Source: a phage
DNA length: 42,499 nt
Reading direction: 5' to 3' (one strand)
Sequence record: OZ418230.1
In this document: one piece after another, positions 21,383 through 42,106 of the stretch
Layout: every line of letters begins with the position of its first letter
Numbering within the stretch: position 1 is the first letter of the stretch
Notes under the pieces: generated by a model
Database searches by the model: none
What the model was told of the DNA's origin: nothing
What the model saw: only the letters and a program-made list of their open reading frames with translations
Position numbers and translations under genes: made by a program

Positions 21383-21610
21383 ATGGATATAAGCCCCTTA
21401 CTTCATGCACTTTGTGCTGTGGCTGCGCAGATACTGGTTGGTCTTTTTACCGGAAACTGGGCTTACGGAGCGATAGCCGGTTGTACGTTCTTCATTGCGC
21501 GTGAACATACCCAGGCAGAATATCGCTGGATTGAAATGTTCGGGCATGGCAAGCGAATGAATATGCCGTGGTGGGGCGGTTTTGATGTTACGCCATATGG
21601 GCTGGACTGA
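21383..21610 (+). CDS. hypothetical small hydrophobic protein
   Basis: 75-aa ORF with hydrophobic N-terminus; its last codons run into the icd-homologous segment in a different frame, so could be fortuitous. Confidence 0.3.
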
Positions 21611-21749
21611 AGCCGCAGACCTGATTGTTAAAGGTATGGAAGGCGCAATCAACGCCAAGACTGTAACCTATGACTTCGAACGTCTGATGGAAGGCGCTAA
21701 ATTGCTGAAATGTAGCGAGTTTGGCGACGCGATCATCAAGAACATGTAA
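21585..21749 (+). other. attP-associated substitute 3' end of host icd (isocitrate dehydrogenase)
   Basis: Open frame translating [54 protein letters not shown], near-identical to the E. coli Icd C-terminus; phages 21 and e14 integrate in icd. Confidence 0.8.
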
Positions 21750-21862: not shown

Positions 21863-23005
21863 CTATGCTGTTTTGATATCTACGATAACCCAGTCTTTAC
21901 CACGATCATCATTGTATCGGTCGGTCATTTTTCTGGATTTATGGCCTAACAACTTTTGCGTATCCAGACCCTGTTCCCGATATAACCGTTCTGACAGAGA
22001 TCGCTGCTCATGAAATGTGGGCGCAGTTCCTTGCTCCCATTTTATGCCACATTTTTCCCTGGCCTTTTTAAAAGCCGTTGTCAGAGTATTTGCAGAAACC
22101 TGGTCTCCTCTGTTTGCTTGAGAGGTAGTGTGACGGTAATGGACCAGATATTTACTAACAACAGCATCCCTGCACTGAGATATAACTTCACGAAGGGTAA
22201 TATTCAGAGCATCGCATTTCAGGTTAAGCGGAATAGCAAGTTTTGAACCGGTTTTTTCCTGAGTAATGTGCAACATGTCGTCCCAGATATCAGAGAATTT
22301 CAAATTGCAGATATCACCTAAACGTTGTCCAGTAACAAGAGCAAGTAGCATGCCGCATTTTAAATAGGGCTGCCGTCTGCTTACGCTTTCAAATATTGCC
22401 TGCCATTCGGGCAGTGACAATCTTTGGCGGTTTACTCGATTTCGCGGTTGTTTTGTTGCCTGCGCTGGGTTAAATCCTGGCGGAACATGTCCTGCGTGTT
22501 GTGCTTCTTTGAAGACGTCGATCAACACCATTCTCACGACTTGCGCCATCCTGTTATGACCTTCAGCCTTTACAGCATCAATTATTTCGGCAATATCAAG
22601 TGCGGTAATATCCTTGAGGTGTTGCATTCCACAATGCTCACGGAAAAGACGAATGGGTTTGCCTTTTTGCCGATAGGAGTTGGGTCTTAGTTCATTATGT
22701 TGCAGCCTGTCCTCCTGGATAGAAATATATTTATCAAGCCATTCTGTCACCGTAATTTCTGAGCGCCTGCCTTTCATTCTTTCCAGACGCTCATTGACGC
22801 TTAATATTTGTCGGGTACGTTGTTCAGCAATAATGGTATTTGCTTCAGTAGCAACTTGTTTTGCTTCATTCTCATCAGTTCCTAAGCTATGAAAACGACC
22901 GGATAGTGGATGTTTGTATTGCCAATATACCTTTCCGGTTCGCTTATCTAATTTGCAATATAAATTGGGTATAGAGATTTTGTGAGATCGGGGTCTAGCA
23001 GCCAT
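21863..23005 (-). CDS. int: tyrosine integrase, phage 21/e14 (icd-targeting) type
   Basis: 380 aa with tyrosine-recombinase C-terminal region (…HEQRSLSERLYREQGLDTQKLLGHKS…); resembles e14 IntE from memory; adjacent to attP. Confidence 0.9.
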   Translation of the reverse strand: MAARPRSHKISIPNLYCKLDKRTGKVYWQYKHPLSGRFHSLGTDENEAKQVATEANTIIAEQRTRQILSVNERLERMKGRRSEITVTEWLDKYISIQEDRLQHNELRPNSYRQKGKPIRLFREHCGMQHLKDITALDIAEIIDAVKAEGHNRMAQVVRMVLIDVFKEAQHAGHVPPGFNPAQATKQPRNRVNRQRLSLPEWQAIFESVSRRQPYLKCGMLLALVTGQRLGDICNLKFSDIWDDMLHITQEKTGSKLAIPLNLKCDALNITLREVISQCRDAVVSKYLVHYRHTTSQANRGDQVSANTLTTAFKKAREKCGIKWEQGTAPTFHEQRSLSERLYREQGLDTQKLLGHKSRKMTDRYNDDRGKDWVIVDIKTA

Positions 23006-35487: not shown

Positions 35488-35865
35488 ATGCGTGATATTC
35501 AGATGGTTCTTGAGCGTTGGGGAGCGTGGGCGGCTAATAATCATGAAGATGTGACCTGGTCGTCCATTGCCGCCGGTTTTAAGGGATTAATTCCTTCAAA
35601 AGTAAAATCTCGCCCGCAATGTTGTGACGATGACGCGATGATCATTTGCGGGTGCATGGCCCGTCTGAAAAATAACAACAGCGATTTGCATGATTTGTTA
35701 GTGGACTATTATGTCGGCGGCATGACTTTTATGGCGCTTGCGCGTAAGCATGGTAGATCTGATTGTTGGATTGGCAGGATGCTCCAAAAAGCTGAGGGCG
35801 TAGTGGAGGGCATGCTGATGGTGTTGGATCTCAGATTGGAGATGGATGCTGATTGTTTGAGATAA
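35488..35865 (+). CDS. Q: late-gene antiterminator Q (phage 82 / DLP12 QuuD type)
   Basis: [34 protein letters not shown]… resembles QuuD; start at 35488 preferred over track start 35473. Confidence 0.85.
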
Positions 35866-35894
35866 TTAAAGGAAAAGTTGCTGTCTGGTTATCA

Positions 35895-35921
35895 TTAGAC
35901 TAATGTTTCAAATGTTAGAAT
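35895..35921 (+). promoter_or_regulatory. candidate late promoter pR' (-35 ttagac, -10 tagaat)
   Basis: Sigma70-like hexamers downstream of Q and upstream of a terminator; spacing roughly 15 bp, so tentative. Confidence 0.35.
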
Positions 35922-35963
35922 CGCAACGTAGTTATGATCATATAACAGCTTGTTCCCTGATTT

Positions 35964-35993
35964 AGCCAGCCTCCCCAAAGGCTGGTTTTTTTT
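35964..35993 (+). terminator. tR'-like rho-independent terminator downstream of Q
   Basis: Stem ccagcc/ggctgg with 8-nt loop followed by TTTTTTTT. Confidence 0.7.
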
Positions 35994-36021
35994 CTAATAA
36001 GTATCAATCCGGTTAGGTATT

Positions 36022-36546
36022 TTATTGTTTGACCCATAATAGTTCATTGACATTGAATCCCAATTTTTGAGCAGTACGCACATAGTCTGCTTTTACATTA
36101 TCTGGAATAGTTGGAGTCCGTGCCAGAATCCATAGGTATTCTCTGTTCGGACCACTGACAAGAGCATACTTATACTCATCATCCAGTTTGATTACATTAT
36201 AGCCACCATAGAAGGGGCCAAAAAACGAAACCTTCAACGCTGCAGTTGTATTATCTCCTGTAAAGTATGCTTTACCTTCGCTCTCGCTCCATTTGTTTTT
36301 CGTTGGGTCATATCCACGATTAAGTACACTAATCCCTCCGTCGTTCCGTTTCCCATAAGTGGCGCTGACCTGTTCCAGACCACGTTCAAATCGGTTCTCA
36401 AGCCGAGCTATTTCATACCATTTTCCGAGGTAGCGGTTGGTGTCAAAATTTGTAATCGGCTGCACACCTTTAGGTGGTGTCGGGGCCTTACATGCTATCA
36501 GAGTGAAAGAGAGTGCAATGCCAGTCAACACAGGCCATAACTTCAT
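36022..36546 (-). CDS. Blc-like outer-membrane lipocalin lipoprotein
   Basis: 174 aa with lipobox (LIAC) and strong similarity to E. coli Blc (…YLGKWYEIARLENRFERGLE…KVSFFGPFYGGYNVI…). Confidence 0.8.
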   Translation of the reverse strand: MKLWPVLTGIALSFTLIACKAPTPPKGVQPITNFDTNRYLGKWYEIARLENRFERGLEQVSATYGKRNDGGISVLNRGYDPTKNKWSESEGKAYFTGDNTTAALKVSFFGPFYGGYNVIKLDDEYKYALVSGPNREYLWILARTPTIPDNVKADYVRTAQKLGFNVNELLWVKQ

Positions 36547-36895
36547 AATATATCCTGTACTTTTGATAGTTGAGAGTAAGTATTAAAGATAGATGATTAC
36601 TACCGATCACCTAAAGAACTTTCCTACTATATTAGGAATAGTCCATAACAAAAAAATTGTCAGTGATGACGGCAGAAAGGCAGTTTAGGTCGTGTACTAC
36701 ACTGTTAACCTGTTAATGAATTAGTCAAGGGGTAGGCAATGATAAAAAAACCTGTCGTTGGGATCAGTGGTTGTTTGGCCGGTTCTTCTGTCCGTTTTGA
36801 TGGTGGTCACAAAAGAGCTAGCTTTTTAATGGACAAATTACTGGAATGGGTAACATTCAAACCAGTATGTCCGGAAATGGCTATAGGGCTTCCAG

Positions 36896-36900
36896 TTCCG
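36896..36900. repeat. IS2 target-site duplication, left copy (ttccg)
   Basis: Identical 5-mer directly flanks both IS2 ends. Confidence 0.85.
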
Positions 36901-36911
36901 TGGATTTGCCC

Positions 36912-37817
36912 CTATATTTCCAGACACCTGTTATCACTTAACCCATCACTGGCCCACTGCCGCAGATATTCCCGTGGCGAGCGATAACCCAGCGCACTAT
37001 GCGGATGCCATTCGTTATAATGCTCGAACGCCTCTGCAAGGTTCTTTGCTGCCGTTAACCCGTCTGGTTTGGGCATGATACTGATGTAGTCACGCTTTAT
37101 CGTTTTCACGAAGCTCTCTGCTATTCCGTTACTCTCCGGACTCCGCACTGCCGTGTTCTTCGGTTCAAGTCCCAACATCCTGGCGAACTGACGTGTTTCA
37201 TTCGCCCGGTAGCATGAACCATTATCCGTCAGCCACTCCACTGGAGACGCCGGAAGCTCGCTGCCAAAGCGGCGTTCCACTGCTCCCAGCATGACGTCCT
37301 GTACTGTTTCACTGTCGAAGCCACCCGTTGTGACCGCCCAGTGCAGTGCCTCACGGTCACAGCAGTCCAGCGCGAACGTGACCCGCAGTTTTTCTCCGTT
37401 ATCACAGCGGAACTCAAACCCGTCAGAGCACCATCGCTGATTACTTTCTTTCACAGCCACTCTGCCGGTATGTGCCCGTTTCGATGGCGGTACAGCGGGT
37501 TTTCGCTCAAGCAACAGCGCATTCTGGCGCATGATCCGGTAAACACGTTTGGCATTGATCGCAGGCATACCATCAAGTTCTGTTTGTCTGCGAAGCAGCG
37601 CCCATACCCGACGATAACCATATGTGGGTAGCTCTCCGATAACATGGTGTATACGGCGAAGCACATCCGTATCATCCGTGTGACGGCTGCGGCGGCCGTC
37701 CTTCCAGTCATCGGCTCGTCTGAGAATGACGTGCAACTGCGCACGCGACACCCGGAGACAACGGCTGACGAAGCTTACTCCCCATCCCCGGGCAATAAGG
37801 GCGCGTGCGCTATCCAC
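36912..37817 (-). CDS. insD: IS2 transposase OrfB (InsD)
   Basis: 301 aa, matches IS2 InsD. Confidence 0.9.
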
Positions 37818-38140
37818 TTTTTTGCTCGCCCATATTCAACGGCTTCTTTAAGGAGTTCATTTTCCATCGTTTTTTTGCCGAGCAGACGCTGGAGTTCTTT
37901 AATCTGCTTCATGGCGGCAGCAAGTTCAGAGGCAGGAACGACCTGTTCTCCGGCAGCCACAGCAGTAAGACTTCCCTCCTGGTATTGCTTACGCCAGAGA
38001 AATAGCTGGCTGGCTGCCACACCATGTTGCCGGGCAACAAGGGAGACCGTCATTCCCGGTTCAAAGCTCTGCTGAACGATAGCGATCTTTTCCTGTGTAG
38101 TACGCCGTCTGCGTTTCTCCGGCCCTAAGACATCAATCAT
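37775..38140 (-). CDS. insC: IS2 OrfA (InsC)
   Basis: 121 aa from [40 protein letters not shown]…; overlaps insD (frameshift window). Confidence 0.9.
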
Positions 38141-38231
38141 CTGTTCTCCAATGACTAGTCTAAAAACTAGTATTAAGACTATCACTTAAATAAGTGATAT
38201 TGGTTGTCTGGAGATTCAGGGGGCCAGTCTA

Positions 38232-38236
38232 TTCCG
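38232..38236. repeat. IS2 target-site duplication, right copy (ttccg)
   Basis: Identical to 36896..36900. Confidence 0.85.
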
Positions 38237-39343
38237 CGTCCTGCTCTACGTCTTGTTCGCTCGGCGCAAGGAAATATACGGATGTGTTTCAGCCACGACC
38301 AGAATGAGGATGTTACAGAGAAAATGACAGAGTTTAGTCGTTCTTATCTTGACAAATTAAAGGATGTATCGGGATTTGTGGTTTGTGCAAAATCTCCTAG
38401 CTGTGGTATGGAACGCGTGCGTGTATATGATGAAAATGGTAATCGTGGTCGTAAAGATGGAGTGGGACTATTTACGAGCACGTTGATGGAAAGGTTTTCC
38501 TGGCTACCGGTTGAAGAGGATGGGCGACTACATGATCCAGTGCTTCGTGAAAACTTTGTTGAAAGAGTATTTGCTTTACATGAGCTCAATCATCTTTATA
38601 AAGCGAAATTATCAAGAAGGGAATTATTAGCTTTTCATAGCCGTTATAAGCTTCAGTTGTTGGCGCATAGCCAGGCCGGTTATAAAGAGATGGGGCCATT
38701 TGTGGCTGCAATACATGAGTGGGCAGACCTTGAATCATACTTTGAGGTGTATCGTGAGAAGCTGATGGCGATTCTCAGAAAACCTGCATCACGTAAAAAT
38801 CACACGAATGTGCTGATGCATATACAGGGATATTTTAGTAACTGCTTAAATACACGTCAGCGTAAAGAGTTGAGCGATGTTATACTTAACTATCGAGCTG
38901 GCACGCTACCTCTTCTTGCGCCATTAACTTTGCTGAAGCATTACTTGGCAGAGTATCCTGATGATTATTTGCTTATACAGAATTACTTCCACCCCTATCC
39001 TGATGAACTGGCTCTAAGACTCTTGGTGAACTAGGCGTTTGGAATGCACCAACAAGATGATTTTCTCCTTAGAGAATGTTTACAATCGTAAAAACTTCAC
39101 TATGATATCTATAGTTGTACAGTTTGTAAAAAAATTCGGTTCATGCTTAAGGTAATGTTAATATGTTAATTAATGATTAATAATCAAGCAAGCCAAAAAT
39201 AGTTCTGTTTAATCTAGTATTACATAAATATTTTAAAGAAAATATCAAAGTTCATGATGATATAATGAGATTTTTCTCATTGAAAATATGGCAATTTTAA
39301 TATTTCCACCTATACTTACTTAACTCAAATCTAATTATGTCAG

Positions 39344-40084
39344 GTGGATGGTATGCCATGCATATGTTCTATCATTTTAGTTTTGAACTCGTTTGATATC
39401 CGGCTTGGTAAAGAAAAAATCTCTCTAAAAAAAGGAAGTGTTGTTGCTATAGAATACAATTTAAAAGTTTTCTTTTCTTCAAATAAAGATAATATAATGA
39501 TCGTGGATATTGAAGAGAAAACAGTTAATGACTTCTTTAAAAACAATACACTCTCACCTTTTTCTGTAAGAAGATTTTATTCAGCATACTTGATAGTAAA
39601 CTGTACAGACTATTCATTGTTAAAGAACTTGATAGGTTGCTTGAATTGTGATGGTGAAACTACGGCTGTAGTTAAAAATTCAATATTATTTGCATGTCTT
39701 GCTATTTTATCCTCGGAAAAAATGTTTCAGAGTTTTTTGTTTGGGTGTCTTAATAGTTTAGGAAGCAAAGTTAAGGCTATTATTCACTCGGACATATCTG
39801 CAGCATGGAGACTTTGTGATATTTCTTCAAGACTATGTCTGAGTGAAAGTTTGTTAAAAAGAAAACTAAAACACGAAGGCTTATCATTTAGCAAATTAAT
39901 TCTTGAAGAACGAATGGTGATGGCTGAAAGGTTATTAAGCTACAATTTCTATCCTGTTGGGAAAGTTGCTAAAATATGTGGTTATGAAAGCGCGTCATAT
40001 TTTATAAGTGTTTTCAGAAGATATTTTGGTGTTCCCCCCCATGAATATTCATCAAGATTTTTTTTAGAAAAAGGCAAGATGTAA
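39344..40084 (+). CDS. AraC/XylS-family transcriptional regulator (low GC)
   Basis: C-terminal double-HTH signature (…GYESASYFISVFRRYFGVPPHEYSS…) resembling GadX/Rns-type regulators; gene and upstream region markedly AT-rich. Confidence 0.8.
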   Translation: MDGMPCICSIILVLNSFDIRLGKEKISLKKGSVVAIEYNLKVFFSSNKDNIMIVDIEEKTVNDFFKNNTLSPFSVRRFYSAYLIVNCTDYSLLKNLIGCLNCDGETTAVVKNSILFACLAILSSEKMFQSFLFGCLNSLGSKVKAIIHSDISAAWRLCDISSRLCLSESLLKRKLKHEGLSFSKLILEERMVMAERLLSYNFYPVGKVAKICGYESASYFISVFRRYFGVPPHEYSSRFFLEKGKM

Positions 40085-40251
40085 CGTGATGCGTTTTGAT
40101 GATTTTGTAATTTTCATATTTGATGATTATATGATGCTTTCAGCTACGCCAGAATAATCGCTGGCGTTTTTCTTTTCTAATGTAACTTCTGTATCTTTCC
40201 CTCTTTCATTCCAAACCGTGTACACCATCCGTTATTCGCGGAGGTGAGGCT

Positions 40252-40467
40252 ATGAAATCCATGGACAAGTTAACAACGGGCATTGCCTACGGCACCTCTG
40301 CAGGCAGTGCTGGCTACTGGTTTTTACAGTGGCTTGATCAGGTCAGTCCGTCACAGTGGGCGGCGATTGGAGTGCTTGGAAGCCTTGTGTTGGGTTTTCT
40401 CACTTATCTGACAAACCTTTATTTCAAGATTAAAGAAGATAAGCGTAAGGCTGCGAGAGGTGAATAA
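40252..40467 (+). CDS. S: pinholin (phage 21 S21 type), dual-start motif
   Basis: 71 aa [31 protein letters not shown]… as S21/EssD; Met1 and Met4 give the dual start. Confidence 0.85.
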
Positions 40468-40964
40468 TGTCGCCATCATTACGCAAGGCTGTAGCAGCTG
40501 CTATTGGTGGTGGGGCTGTTGCCATAGCGTCTGTGCTCATCACTGGTCCGAGTGGTGACGATGGTCTGGAAGGTGTCAGCTACATACCATATAAAGATAT
40601 TGTTGGTGTATGGACTGTATGTCACGGGCATACAGGAAAAGACATCATGCTCGGTAAAACGTATACCAAAGCAGAATGCAAAGCACTCTTGAATAAAGAC
40701 CTTGCCACTGTCGCCAGACAAATTAACCCGTACATCAAAGTCGATATACCGGAAACAACGCGCGGCGCTCTTTACTCATTCGTTTACAACGTGGGTGCTG
40801 GCAATTTCAGAACATCGACGCTTCTTCGCAAAATAAACCAGGGCGATATCAAAGGCGCATGTGATCAGTTACGTCGCTGGACATATGCTGGCGGTAAGCA
40901 ATGGAAAGGTCTCATGACTCGTCGTGAGATTGAGCGTGAAATCTGTTTGTGGGGTCAGCAATGA
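40467..40964 (+). CDS. R: SAR endolysin (phage 21 R21 / RrrD type lysozyme)
   Basis: 165 aa with N-terminal signal-anchor-release segment ([20 protein letters not shown]) and lysozyme domain. Confidence 0.9.
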
Positions 40965-41422
40965 ACAGAGTAACCGCGATTATCTCCGCTCTGGTTATCT
41001 GCATCATCGTCTGCCTGTCATGGGCTGTTAATCATTACCGTGATAACGCCATTACCTACAAAGCCCAGCGCGACAAAAATGCCAGAGAACTGAAGCTGGC
41101 GAACGCGGCAATTACTGACATGCAGATGCGTCAGCGTGATGTTGCTGCGCTCGATGCAAAATACACGAAGGAGTTAGCTGATGCGAAAGCTGAAAATGAT
41201 GCTCTGCGTGATGATGTTGCCGCTGGTCGTCGTCGGTTGCACATCAAAGCAGTCTGTCAGTCAGTGCGTGAAGCCACCACCGCCTCCGGCGTGGATAATG
41301 CAGCCTCCCCCCGACTGGCAGACACCGCTGAACGGGATTATTTCACCCTCAGAGAGAGGCTGATCACGATGCAAAAACAACTGGAAGGAACCCAGAAGTA
41401 TATTAATGAGCAGTGCAGATAG
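40961..41422 (+). CDS. Rz: i-spanin Rz
   Basis: Lambda Rz from the Met at 40961 ([30 protein letters not shown]…), ATGA overlap with R. Confidence 0.88.
41181..41363 (+). CDS. Rz1: o-spanin Rz1 (embedded in Rz, +1 frame)
   Basis: 60-aa lipoprotein [59 protein letters not shown], as lambda Rz1. Confidence 0.88.
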
Positions 41423-41453: not shown

Positions 41454-41747
41454 TTATTGTGAGCAATAGACACGCGCTTCCAGCGGAGTATAAATGCCTA
41501 AAGTAATAAAACCGAGCAATCCATTTACGAATGTTTGCTGGGTTTCTGTTTTAACAACATTTTCTGCGCCGCCACAAATTTTGGCTGCATCAACAGTTTT
41601 CTCCTGTCCAATTCCCGAAACGAAGAAGTGATGGGTGATGGTTTCCTTTGGTGTTACTGCTGTCGGTTTGTTTCCAACAGTAAACGTCTGTTGAGCACAT
41701 CCTGTAATAAGCATTGCCAGAGCGGCAGAAAACAACATTTTTTTCAT
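41454..41747 (-). CDS. bor: Bor serum-resistance lipoprotein
   Basis: 97 aa from MKKMLFSAALAMLITGCAQQTFTV…, lambda Bor; the track start 41795 is an upstream extension. Confidence 0.88.
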   Translation of the reverse strand: MKKMLFSAALAMLITGCAQQTFTVGNKPTAVTPKETITHHFFVSGIGQEKTVDAAKICGGAENVVKTETQQTFVNGLLGFITLGIYTPLEARVYCSQ

Positions 41748-42106
41748 CTTATTATCCTGCATTGTTAAAAACGGCAGAATCCTATGTGACAACAATTAAA
41801 CGATAGTTAAATGGATTGATGAAAATTAAAACTATATAGGTGGATGCTCAGCCTATTGGAGGAGGGGGGCACTCAGAATCCTGTGGAATGAAATAAACCG
41901 CTCTTTCTGTCCATTACCCTTTTAGCTGCGCTGTATCGTCGCCGTATTCCCGCATTAACCATGACCGTAGCCCGACGGGGAATTCCTTCTGCGTGAGTGT
42001 GCGGGAATAATCAAAAACGATGCACACCGGGTTTTACTGTGCTGACAGACGCAGGGTTACCCTCATAGTCGCTTTTCCGGTGCGATGGTGGAAGAAACCG
42101 GGATGT

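Follow-up and report, generated by a model that had tools for sequence, protein, structure and literature searches.

The lambda-like phage genome OZ418230.1 (42,499 nucleotides, the whole of which is called the window here) carries a complete copy of IS2 inside rudS, a gene that lies between the late-gene antiterminator Q and the lysis genes. A recent insertion has probably made a null allele of this passenger gene, and late and lysis expression would be little affected. IS2 is a textbook insertion sequence, and it is commonplace for an IS to insert into a passenger gene of a lambdoid prophage, the nmpC::IS5 of DLP12 and 434B being the classic case. All the components described below are known, and the exact insertion is already annotated in RefSeq genomes, in the form of two pseudogene halves and a transposase. 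The event is real, recent and ordinary, and it is of little significance alone.

The IS2 copy and its place in the late region

As written, the 42.5-kb genome opens at a cos end of the lambda type (first letters GGGGCGGCGACCTCG), with Nu1 (191-736) and A (711-2636) placed as in lambda, and runs through the head and tail genes, int (21863-23005, minus strand), the immunity and replication region and the nin region to late control. Q (35488-35865, plus strand) is a late-gene antiterminator of the Q21 family, which is recognised by Pfam Phage_antitermQ (PF06530), matches the Q21 structures (PDB codes: 6P18 and 6JNX) over residues 13-95 with an E value of 2e-8, and is 88% identical to Q of phage 434B. 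A candidate pR' region with a tR'-like terminator (35837-35995, plus strand) was delimited purely by consensus matches. The candidate promoter sites are a consensus-scan hit at 35837-35866 and an extended -10 (TGTTAGAAT) at 35913-35921, while the terminator is a strong hairpin (stem 35964-35987) with a T8 run that extends to 35995. Promoter-like sites and then a hairpin directly after Q would correspond to the expected pR'-tR' arrangement.

Between this region and the lysis genes are located the lipocalin moron blc (36022-36546, minus strand; Pfam Lipocalin_2), the divergently oriented rudS, itself a non-essential passenger ("moron") gene, and a moron encoding a YdeO/GadX-like regulator of the AraC family (39344-40084, plus strand), which has a promoter-like site of its own at 39079-39106. 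A terminator-like hairpin with a T-run (40146-40167, plus strand) lies 85 bp before S. The lysis cassette (40252-41422, plus strand) consists of an S21-type holin (40252-40467; Pfam Phage_holin_2_1), a lysozyme (40467-40964; Pfam Phage_lysozyme) and Rz (40949-41422; Pfam Phage_lysis). In cassettes of the phage 21 type the lysozyme is a SAR endolysin; the lysozyme of the window is known from its Pfam domain and its PGAP name, RrrD.

The element occupies exactly 1331 bp (36901-38231, minus strand) between two copies of TTCCG, the left one at 36896-36900, which is present as a single copy in the empty allele of phage Lambda_2E9, and the right one at 38232-38236, which matches it in sequence. Read in its own orientation, which is the minus strand of the window, it starts with TAGACTGGCCCCCTGAATCTCCAGACA and ends with GGAAATATAGGGGCAAATCCA; its transposase genes are antisense to the late operon. 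Alignment to IS2A of Escherichia coli K-12 MG1655 (NC_000913.3, 381260-382590) is free of gaps, with 58 substitutions (95.64% identity). The inverted repeats of IS2 are 42 bp (IRL) and 41 bp (IRR) long (PMC3299598). In the window, IRR (36901-36941, minus strand) is the end toward blc and Q, it terminates in GGAAATATAGGGGCAAATCCA and differs from K-12 by one substitution; IRL (38190-38231, minus strand) is the end toward the 3' fragment of rudS and the lysis genes, it begins with TAGACTGGCCCCCTGAATCTCC and its first 41 bases are those of K-12. IS2 transposes by a copy-out/paste-in route in which a minicircle is formed, and the sequence elements of the minicircle junction promoter Pjunc are present as well (the -35 TGGAAA in IRR and TAGACT in IRL).

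The coding content of the element is intact. insC (orfA, 37775-38140, minus strand) encodes a 121-aa product, the HTH repressor and N-terminal part of the OrfAB transposase (Pfam HTH_Tnp_1), that is identical to K-12 InsC at 121 of 121 residues. insD (orfB, 36912-37817, minus strand) encodes 301 aa with an rve DDE integrase core (Pfam rve, rve_3 and HTH_21), and shares 287 of 301 residues (95.3%) with K-12 InsD, 14 residues being different. Both frames are open and overlap, and the intact A6G motif (37817-37823, minus strand; IS positions 409-415) predicts a programmed -1 frameshift. The NCBIfam models of IS2 TnpA and TnpB score 275.8 and 695.8 bits, against curated cut-offs of 229 and 597, respectively. 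The length, the lack of indels, the termini, InsC, the A6G motif, the rve DDE domain and the 5-bp target duplication are common to this copy and K-12 IS2, while the centre of the inner IRL palindrome is TT here and AA in K-12. Nucleotide identity (95.64%) and protein identity (100% for InsC, 95.3% for InsD) lie above the limits for isoforms that we take to be the ISfinder convention, i.e. more than 90% for DNA and more than 95% for protein. The element is an intact IS2 isoform of the K-12 type and belongs to the IS3 family. PGAP names the identical copies in strains 118UI and MSB1_7C merely "IS3 family transposase, programmed frameshift", because of the divergence from K-12 IS2 (95.6% identity in DNA, 14 residues in InsD).

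A preliminary description of this DNA had proposed a 1331-bp element with IS2 termini, InsC and InsD reading frames and flanking TTCCG, located between Q and S-R-Rz. The K-12 alignment, in which both the ends and the reading frames match IS2, and the NCBIfam models agree with the first part of this proposal, and the coordinates of Q and of the lysis cassette with the second.

The interrupted rudS gene

Removal of the element and one TTCCG copy in silico joins 36739-36900 to 38237-39034 in a single frame of 960 nt that encodes 319 aa, in line with the roughly 319-aa product that had been predicted before. In the restored protein, residues 7-149 match PF04463 (2-thiouracil desulfurase, DUF523/TudS; E value 3.6e-40) and residues 192-309 match PF08349 (DUF1722; E value 1.3e-40), and there is a weak but specific match (E value 9e-5) to TudS (PDB code: 6Z92). 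The earlier DUF523/DUF1722 label is thereby confirmed, and it can be sharpened to RudS_vir: the restored gene is identical at 960 of 960 nt to the intact genes of the phages Lambda_2E9 and 1H12, in the latter of which it is gp66. Such an uninterrupted relative had been called for, and it is not confined to the gene itself. The uninterrupted Q-to-Rz region is found at 99.9-100% identity in the temperate coliphages Lambda_2E9, Lambda_4B5, the Lambda_ev phages and 1H12, and the restored Q-to-Rz stretch of the window (4765 bp) differs from that of Lambda_2E9 by one base.

gp66 of Escherichia phage 1H12 (NC_049947) is the protein that was studied as RudS_vir in 2024 (PMC11417400). RudS proteins are fusions of TudS with DUF1722 that remove the sulfur of 4-thiouridine (s4U) from tRNA, and the expression of RudS_vir lowered the s4U content of tRNA, albeit less than other RudS proteins did (PMC11417400). 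The [4Fe-4S] cluster of RudS_vir is ligated by Cys12, Cys44 and Cys110, and mutation of these ligands abolished activity in most of the homologues tested (PMC11417400). The restored protein has cysteines at positions 12, 44 and 110, as in Table 1 of PMC11417400, and the insertion parts Cys110 from the other two. The 5' fragment (36739-36900, plus strand) comprises codons 1-54 with Cys12 and Cys44 and is annotated by PGAP as the pseudogene "2-thiouracil desulfurase family protein, missing C-terminus"; its reading frame continues into IS2 as far as a stop at 36987, giving 82 aa. The 3' fragment (38237-39034, plus strand) comprises codons 55-319 with Cys110 and DUF1722, and appears as the pseudogene "YbgA family protein, missing N-terminus".

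The same 960 nt lie at the same place in 1H12, between blc and the AraC-like gene in the Q-to-S interval; RudS_vir is intact there, whereas in the window it is split by IS2 after codon 54 and is expected to be inactive. Since Cys110 and the whole of DUF1722 are missing from the 82-aa product, rudS of the window is best seen as a null allele, a reading that we infer from the sequence combined with the published mutagenesis. Lysogens of this phage would lose the phage-encoded tRNA s4U desulfidase.

Origin of the insertion and other IS2 insertions in the same zone

The junctions of the element were searched for with 200-bp queries across each of them in 5,426 complete E. coli genomes, and were found contiguous in exactly this form in only four, 118UI (Mexico), MSB1_7C (Australia), ECO_1_S (South Korea) and ECO_2_R, while 1,064 contain the restored empty site. 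A 30-mer of the junction was absent from IMG/VR, from the GTDB representative genomes and from the JGI metagenomes. In every phage record of INPHARED the coverage of the 6.1-kb query stays below 80%, and therefore none was seen with the insertion. The window was set against three of the four carriers, with about 38.5 kb covered in each of MSB1_7C and ECO_1_S and about 11 kb in 118UI; the aligned segments are 99.35-100% identical to it. In MSB1_7C and ECO_1_S, the two that were checked for this, the prophage is integrated at icd; both prophages are collinear with the window after permutation at cos, and that of MSB1_7C differs from it by 12 mismatches and one gap in 38.5 kb aligned.

A 5-bp flanking repeat is expected at random in about 1 of 1024 cases; such a chance repeat is insufficient as an explanation, because removal of the element restores exactly a known allele. 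IS2 is a multi-copy element in E. coli and could be misassembled, hence the IS might be an assembly chimera that is absent from the real phage. This is exceedingly improbable: both junctions are unbroken in the same form in four complete genomes that were sequenced and assembled independently, which excludes an assembly artefact, and the 5-bp duplication is perfect and the length is exactly 1331 bp. The insertion is one transposition within one lineage of icd-integrated prophages, and it is recent and precise, as the preliminary description had held; the exact restoration of the empty allele, and 4 of 5,426 genomes against 1,064 empty sites, bear this out.

IS copies 100% identical to that of the window occur in 118UI and MSB1_7C, on their plasmids of 90-98 kb, and in many other strains; the plasmid copies of ECO_1_S and ECO_2_R are 99.8-99.9% identical. 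The isoform is frequent on plasmids. We propose that a resident IS2 isoform transposed once into codon 54/55 of rudS, which would have generated the 5-bp duplication of TTCCG. The donor was probably the plasmid-borne, 100%-identical copy in the same strains, although other donors are possible, as identical copies exist in many strains.

The sister prophages carry further insertion sequences that the window lacks, namely, in both MSB1_7C and ECO_1_S, an IS4 that separates E from FI, and an IS3-family element in rusA of 118UI and in ren of ECO_1_S. The lack of further ISs in the window and its cos-first layout fit a genome that can still be packaged, but the layout could also be an editorial rearrangement of a prophage. 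The additional ISs of the sister prophages would also fit a prophage that has escaped selection for lytic growth.

The blc-rudS neighbourhood has been entered by IS2 on other occasions. At least 12 independent IS2 insertions were seen in a zone of about 400 bp in related E. coli prophages, a count that gives no strength of enrichment, the sampling of IS2 sites having been aimed at this zone. The hits range from the 5' end of blc through the region between blc and rudS into codons 1-54 of rudS. The other IS2 copies examined (n = 12) are of the K-12 type, each with its own 5-bp duplication. In window-equivalent positions, copies in the orientation of the window lie at 36528, 36631, 36675, about 36692, 36742 (directly abutting the ATG of rudS) and 36807, and those in the opposite orientation at about 36504, 36596, 36635, 36671 and about 36708. 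Outside the zone, IS2 was found at 39761, in the AraC-like gene, and between ninE and ybcO. The first four independent copies were all antisense to late transcription, but an orientation bias was rejected on a direct test with mirror-image chimeric junction queries, which found the window orientation in 12 genomes at about seven sites and the opposite one in seven genomes at about five sites.

The GC content of the zone is 34.9-39.3%, that of the blc-rudS interval being 34.9% as compared to 50.6% for the window. According to one report, IS2 favours regional hot targets and regions that are curved (PMC3299598), and a cluster in this AT-rich interval fits that preference. The number of independent insertions within 400 bp, one of them directly against the start codon of rudS, might alternatively reflect selection for the loss or the rewiring of rudS expression: repeated hits in the promoter and 5' region of rudS would silence a tRNA-demodifying enzyme at whose cost the lysogen lives, and the present insertion would be one such adaptive knockout. 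We consider this distinctly unlikely, given the targeted sampling, the AT-richness of the zone together with the reported target preference of IS2 (PMC3299598), the occurrence of both orientations (7 to 5), the unbroken reading frame of rudS in most of those insertions and the 1,064 genomes in which the site is uninterrupted. A broader reading, to which we also assign a rather low probability, holds the blc-rudS interval of this prophage module, which is widespread and carried by roughly 1,080 genomes, to be a genuine recurrent target of IS2, hits in which may be selected and would either tune or abolish the s4U eraser or damp late and lysis transcription. The insertion described here would then be a case of IS-mediated taming of a prophage and not a neutral accident.

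Transcription across the element

The insertion of IS2 into rudS is predicted to leave late and lysis expression little affected, and lysis itself may well be unaltered. The late transcript crosses two terminator-like hairpins before it reaches S (35964-35987 and 40146-40167); expression of the lysis genes is thus already dependent on antitermination. After induction, the Q21-family antiterminator would modify RNA polymerase at pR', the modified polymerase would ignore these two hairpins on its way to S, and it should likewise read through the antisense RNA of IS2, which is C-rich and untranslated over 1.3 kb. Q proteins act as a torus, narrowing the exit channel for RNA, Q-lambda suppresses polarity, and the Rho resistance of Q21-type complexes is regarded as likely in a 2025 review, according to which validation is still needed (PMC12360218). 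The situation would be different for unmodified transcripts that start at the rudS promoter in a lysogen. The plus strand over the IS contains 394 C against 314 G and all three of its frames are closed; since the late-sense RNA is C-rich and closed in all frames, unmodified transcripts should stop in IS2, presumably by a Rho-dependent cut-off. The AraC-like gene downstream might be served by its own promoter-like site.

Whether the insertion could be polar even on Q-modified transcription, through Rho-dependent sites in the antisense IS2 RNA, has to be weighed against this. The preliminary description had raised polarity on late and lysis transcription with the reservation that Q-modified polymerase might read through; with that reservation the suggestion is unsupported but not wrong. 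Were it so, the expression of S-R-Rz and of the morphogenetic genes downstream would decrease, lysis would be weak or late and the prophage would drift to domestication. IS2 in galEP3 contains several Rho-dependent terminators (PMC3737525), the late-sense RNA of the IS is untranslatable, C-rich and G-poor, the Rho resistance of Q21-type complexes lacks formal proof (PMC12360218), and the sister prophages of the same lineage have gathered further ISs, including one in the head-gene region. galEP3, an IS2 insertion in the gal leader, is the classical reporter of Rho-dependent polarity; gal transcription, however, is not antiterminated, unlike the late operon of the window, which is read by Q-modified polymerase, and the IS2 strand transcribed in galEP3 may or may not be the one transcribed here. 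The literature offered no usable source for the IS2 labels "orientation I" and "orientation II", which are not applied to this copy.

The best available precedent for Q-modified polymerase at this place is phage 434B (OL657227.1). It has a late region of the DLP12 type, with nmpC::IS5 between a Q that is 88% identical to that of the window and the genes of an S21-type holin, a SAR endolysin and Rz. As in the window, the IS lies within a passenger gene and its transposase is encoded on the strand opposite to late transcription, and the sequence record describes a phage that was isolated; unlike in the window, the element is IS5 (1195 bp) and the passenger is a porin gene on the opposite strand. 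The fact that 434B makes virions with IS5 at the equivalent place argues against polarity on Q-modified late transcription, as do the two terminator-like hairpins that are passed before S in any case, the suppression of polarity by Q-lambda (PMC12360218) and the window itself, a cos-ended genome in which all other lambda-like genes are open. By analogy with these systems, polarity of this kind appears unlikely. Lambda r32 is a further precedent for lambda N or Q reading through IS2; full-text searches of the literature for such read-through returned only irrelevant matches, and the precedent is not used as evidence here.

The preliminary description had also suggested that the element might add outward promoter activity toward S-R-Rz, and this suggestion found no support. 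The known promoters of IS2 are PIRL, which reads inward, and Pjunc, which uses the -35 in IRR and the -10 in IRL (PMC3299598). In the window, IRL faces the lysis genes and the -35 of IRR points toward blc and Q. Our own hexamer scan found no hexamer pair above 8/12 at either junction, and the consensus promoter scan, for which 8/12 is below threshold, found none there; a hybrid or outward promoter was accordingly rejected at both junctions, and activity of this kind directed at S-R-Rz is, as far as can be predicted from the sequence, unlikely. Such a promoter would, with no need for Q, drive the 3' fragment of rudS, the AraC-like regulator or S-R-Rz. The ability of IS2 ends to supply promoter elements, as in Pjunc (PMC3299598), and an in-frame TTG-initiated reading frame that starts in IRL at 38204 could be taken to favour it, but we regard it as very unlikely, considering that the lysis genes face IRL and not IRR, that PIRL reads inward (PMC3299598), that the best junction hexamer pair stays below the scan threshold, that a terminator-like hairpin precedes S and that constitutive holin and endolysin would be lethal to a lysogen, yet the insertion is carried by four lysogenic strains.

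The insertion provides a natural, putative null allele of RudS_vir, so far the only viral RudS on which experiments have been done. A comparison of lysogens of this phage with matched ones of 1H12 or Lambda_2E9, whose flanks are identical, could show the effect of a phage-borne tRNA s4U eraser on the host. Moreover, 1.3 kb of untranslated DNA of known Rho sensitivity within a Q21-type late operon may serve as a ready-made test of the Rho resistance of the Q21 family (PMC12360218).

The passenger block and the lysis cassette

The passenger (moron) block between Q and S (36022-40084) contains the minus-strand gene blc, rudS, and a gene encoding a YdeO/GadX-like regulator of the AraC family, the latter with a promoter-like site of its own at 39079-39106. 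The GC content of the block is 26-44%, compared with 50.6% for the whole window, and this blc/rudS/AraC-like block is a typical acquired moron cluster. A terminator-like hairpin of 7 pairs followed by a T-run is found at 40146-40167, and the holin gene starts about 85 bp downstream of it; since it is the second such structure, besides the tR'-like one at 35964-35987, the lysis genes sit behind two terminators. On the minus strand, 3' of Rz, lies an iss/bor-type serum-resistance lipoprotein gene (41454-41795), so annotated in the sister prophages.

IS2 insertions in the blc-rudS zone of other prophages

In a sampling aimed at this zone, other E. coli prophages (loci L003 and L011-L020) revealed at least 12 independent IS2 insertions at window-equivalent positions 36504-36900, each flanked by its own 5-bp duplication. 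The zone comprises the 5' end of blc, the AT-rich blc-rudS intergenic region and codons 1-54 of rudS. Seven of these insertions have the orientation seen in the window and five the opposite one; one of them, in CB7286 with the target-site duplication AATGA, adjoins the rudS start codon.

The IS2 isoform

The IS2 of the window (36901-38231) is an isoform with 95.6% identity to the IS2 of K-12, designated "IS3 family" rather than IS2 by PGAP. Copies 100% identical to it are carried by 90-98 kb plasmids of two strains bearing the prophage insertion (CP032516.1, 4730-6060; LR890406.1, 63866-65196), and many other strains also hold such copies. The inner palindrome of IRL, the end facing the lysis genes, differs from that of K-12 IS2 at its centre (38189-38190, IS positions 42-43), reading ATCACTTA-TT-TAAGTGAT instead of ATCACTTA-AA-TAAGTGAT, while its arms are the same. 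This palindrome coincides in part with the OrfA operator reported immediately upstream of the inward-reading promoter PIRL.

Genome end, icd and the sister prophages

The window opens with one additional G, ahead of the lambda-type cos sequence GGGCGGCGACCT (positions 1-15). In MSB1_7C and ECO_1_S the prophage is located at icd. From 21583 onward (21583-21749) the window aligns with MSB1_7C, the match starting in the 3'-terminal part of the host icd gene; this alignment suggests that the phage carries an icd 3' end. A phage-borne icd 3' end is typical of icd-integrating phages such as phage 21 and e14.

The sister prophages with the same rudS::IS2 (118UI, MSB1_7C and ECO_1_S; loci L002, L008 and L009) contain further insertion sequences that are absent from the window, namely an IS4 flanked by the major capsid gene and FI, and a member of the IS3 family that lies in either rusA or ren. 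The rudS::IS2 prophage lineage is accumulating insertions, and the window looks like its least-decayed form.
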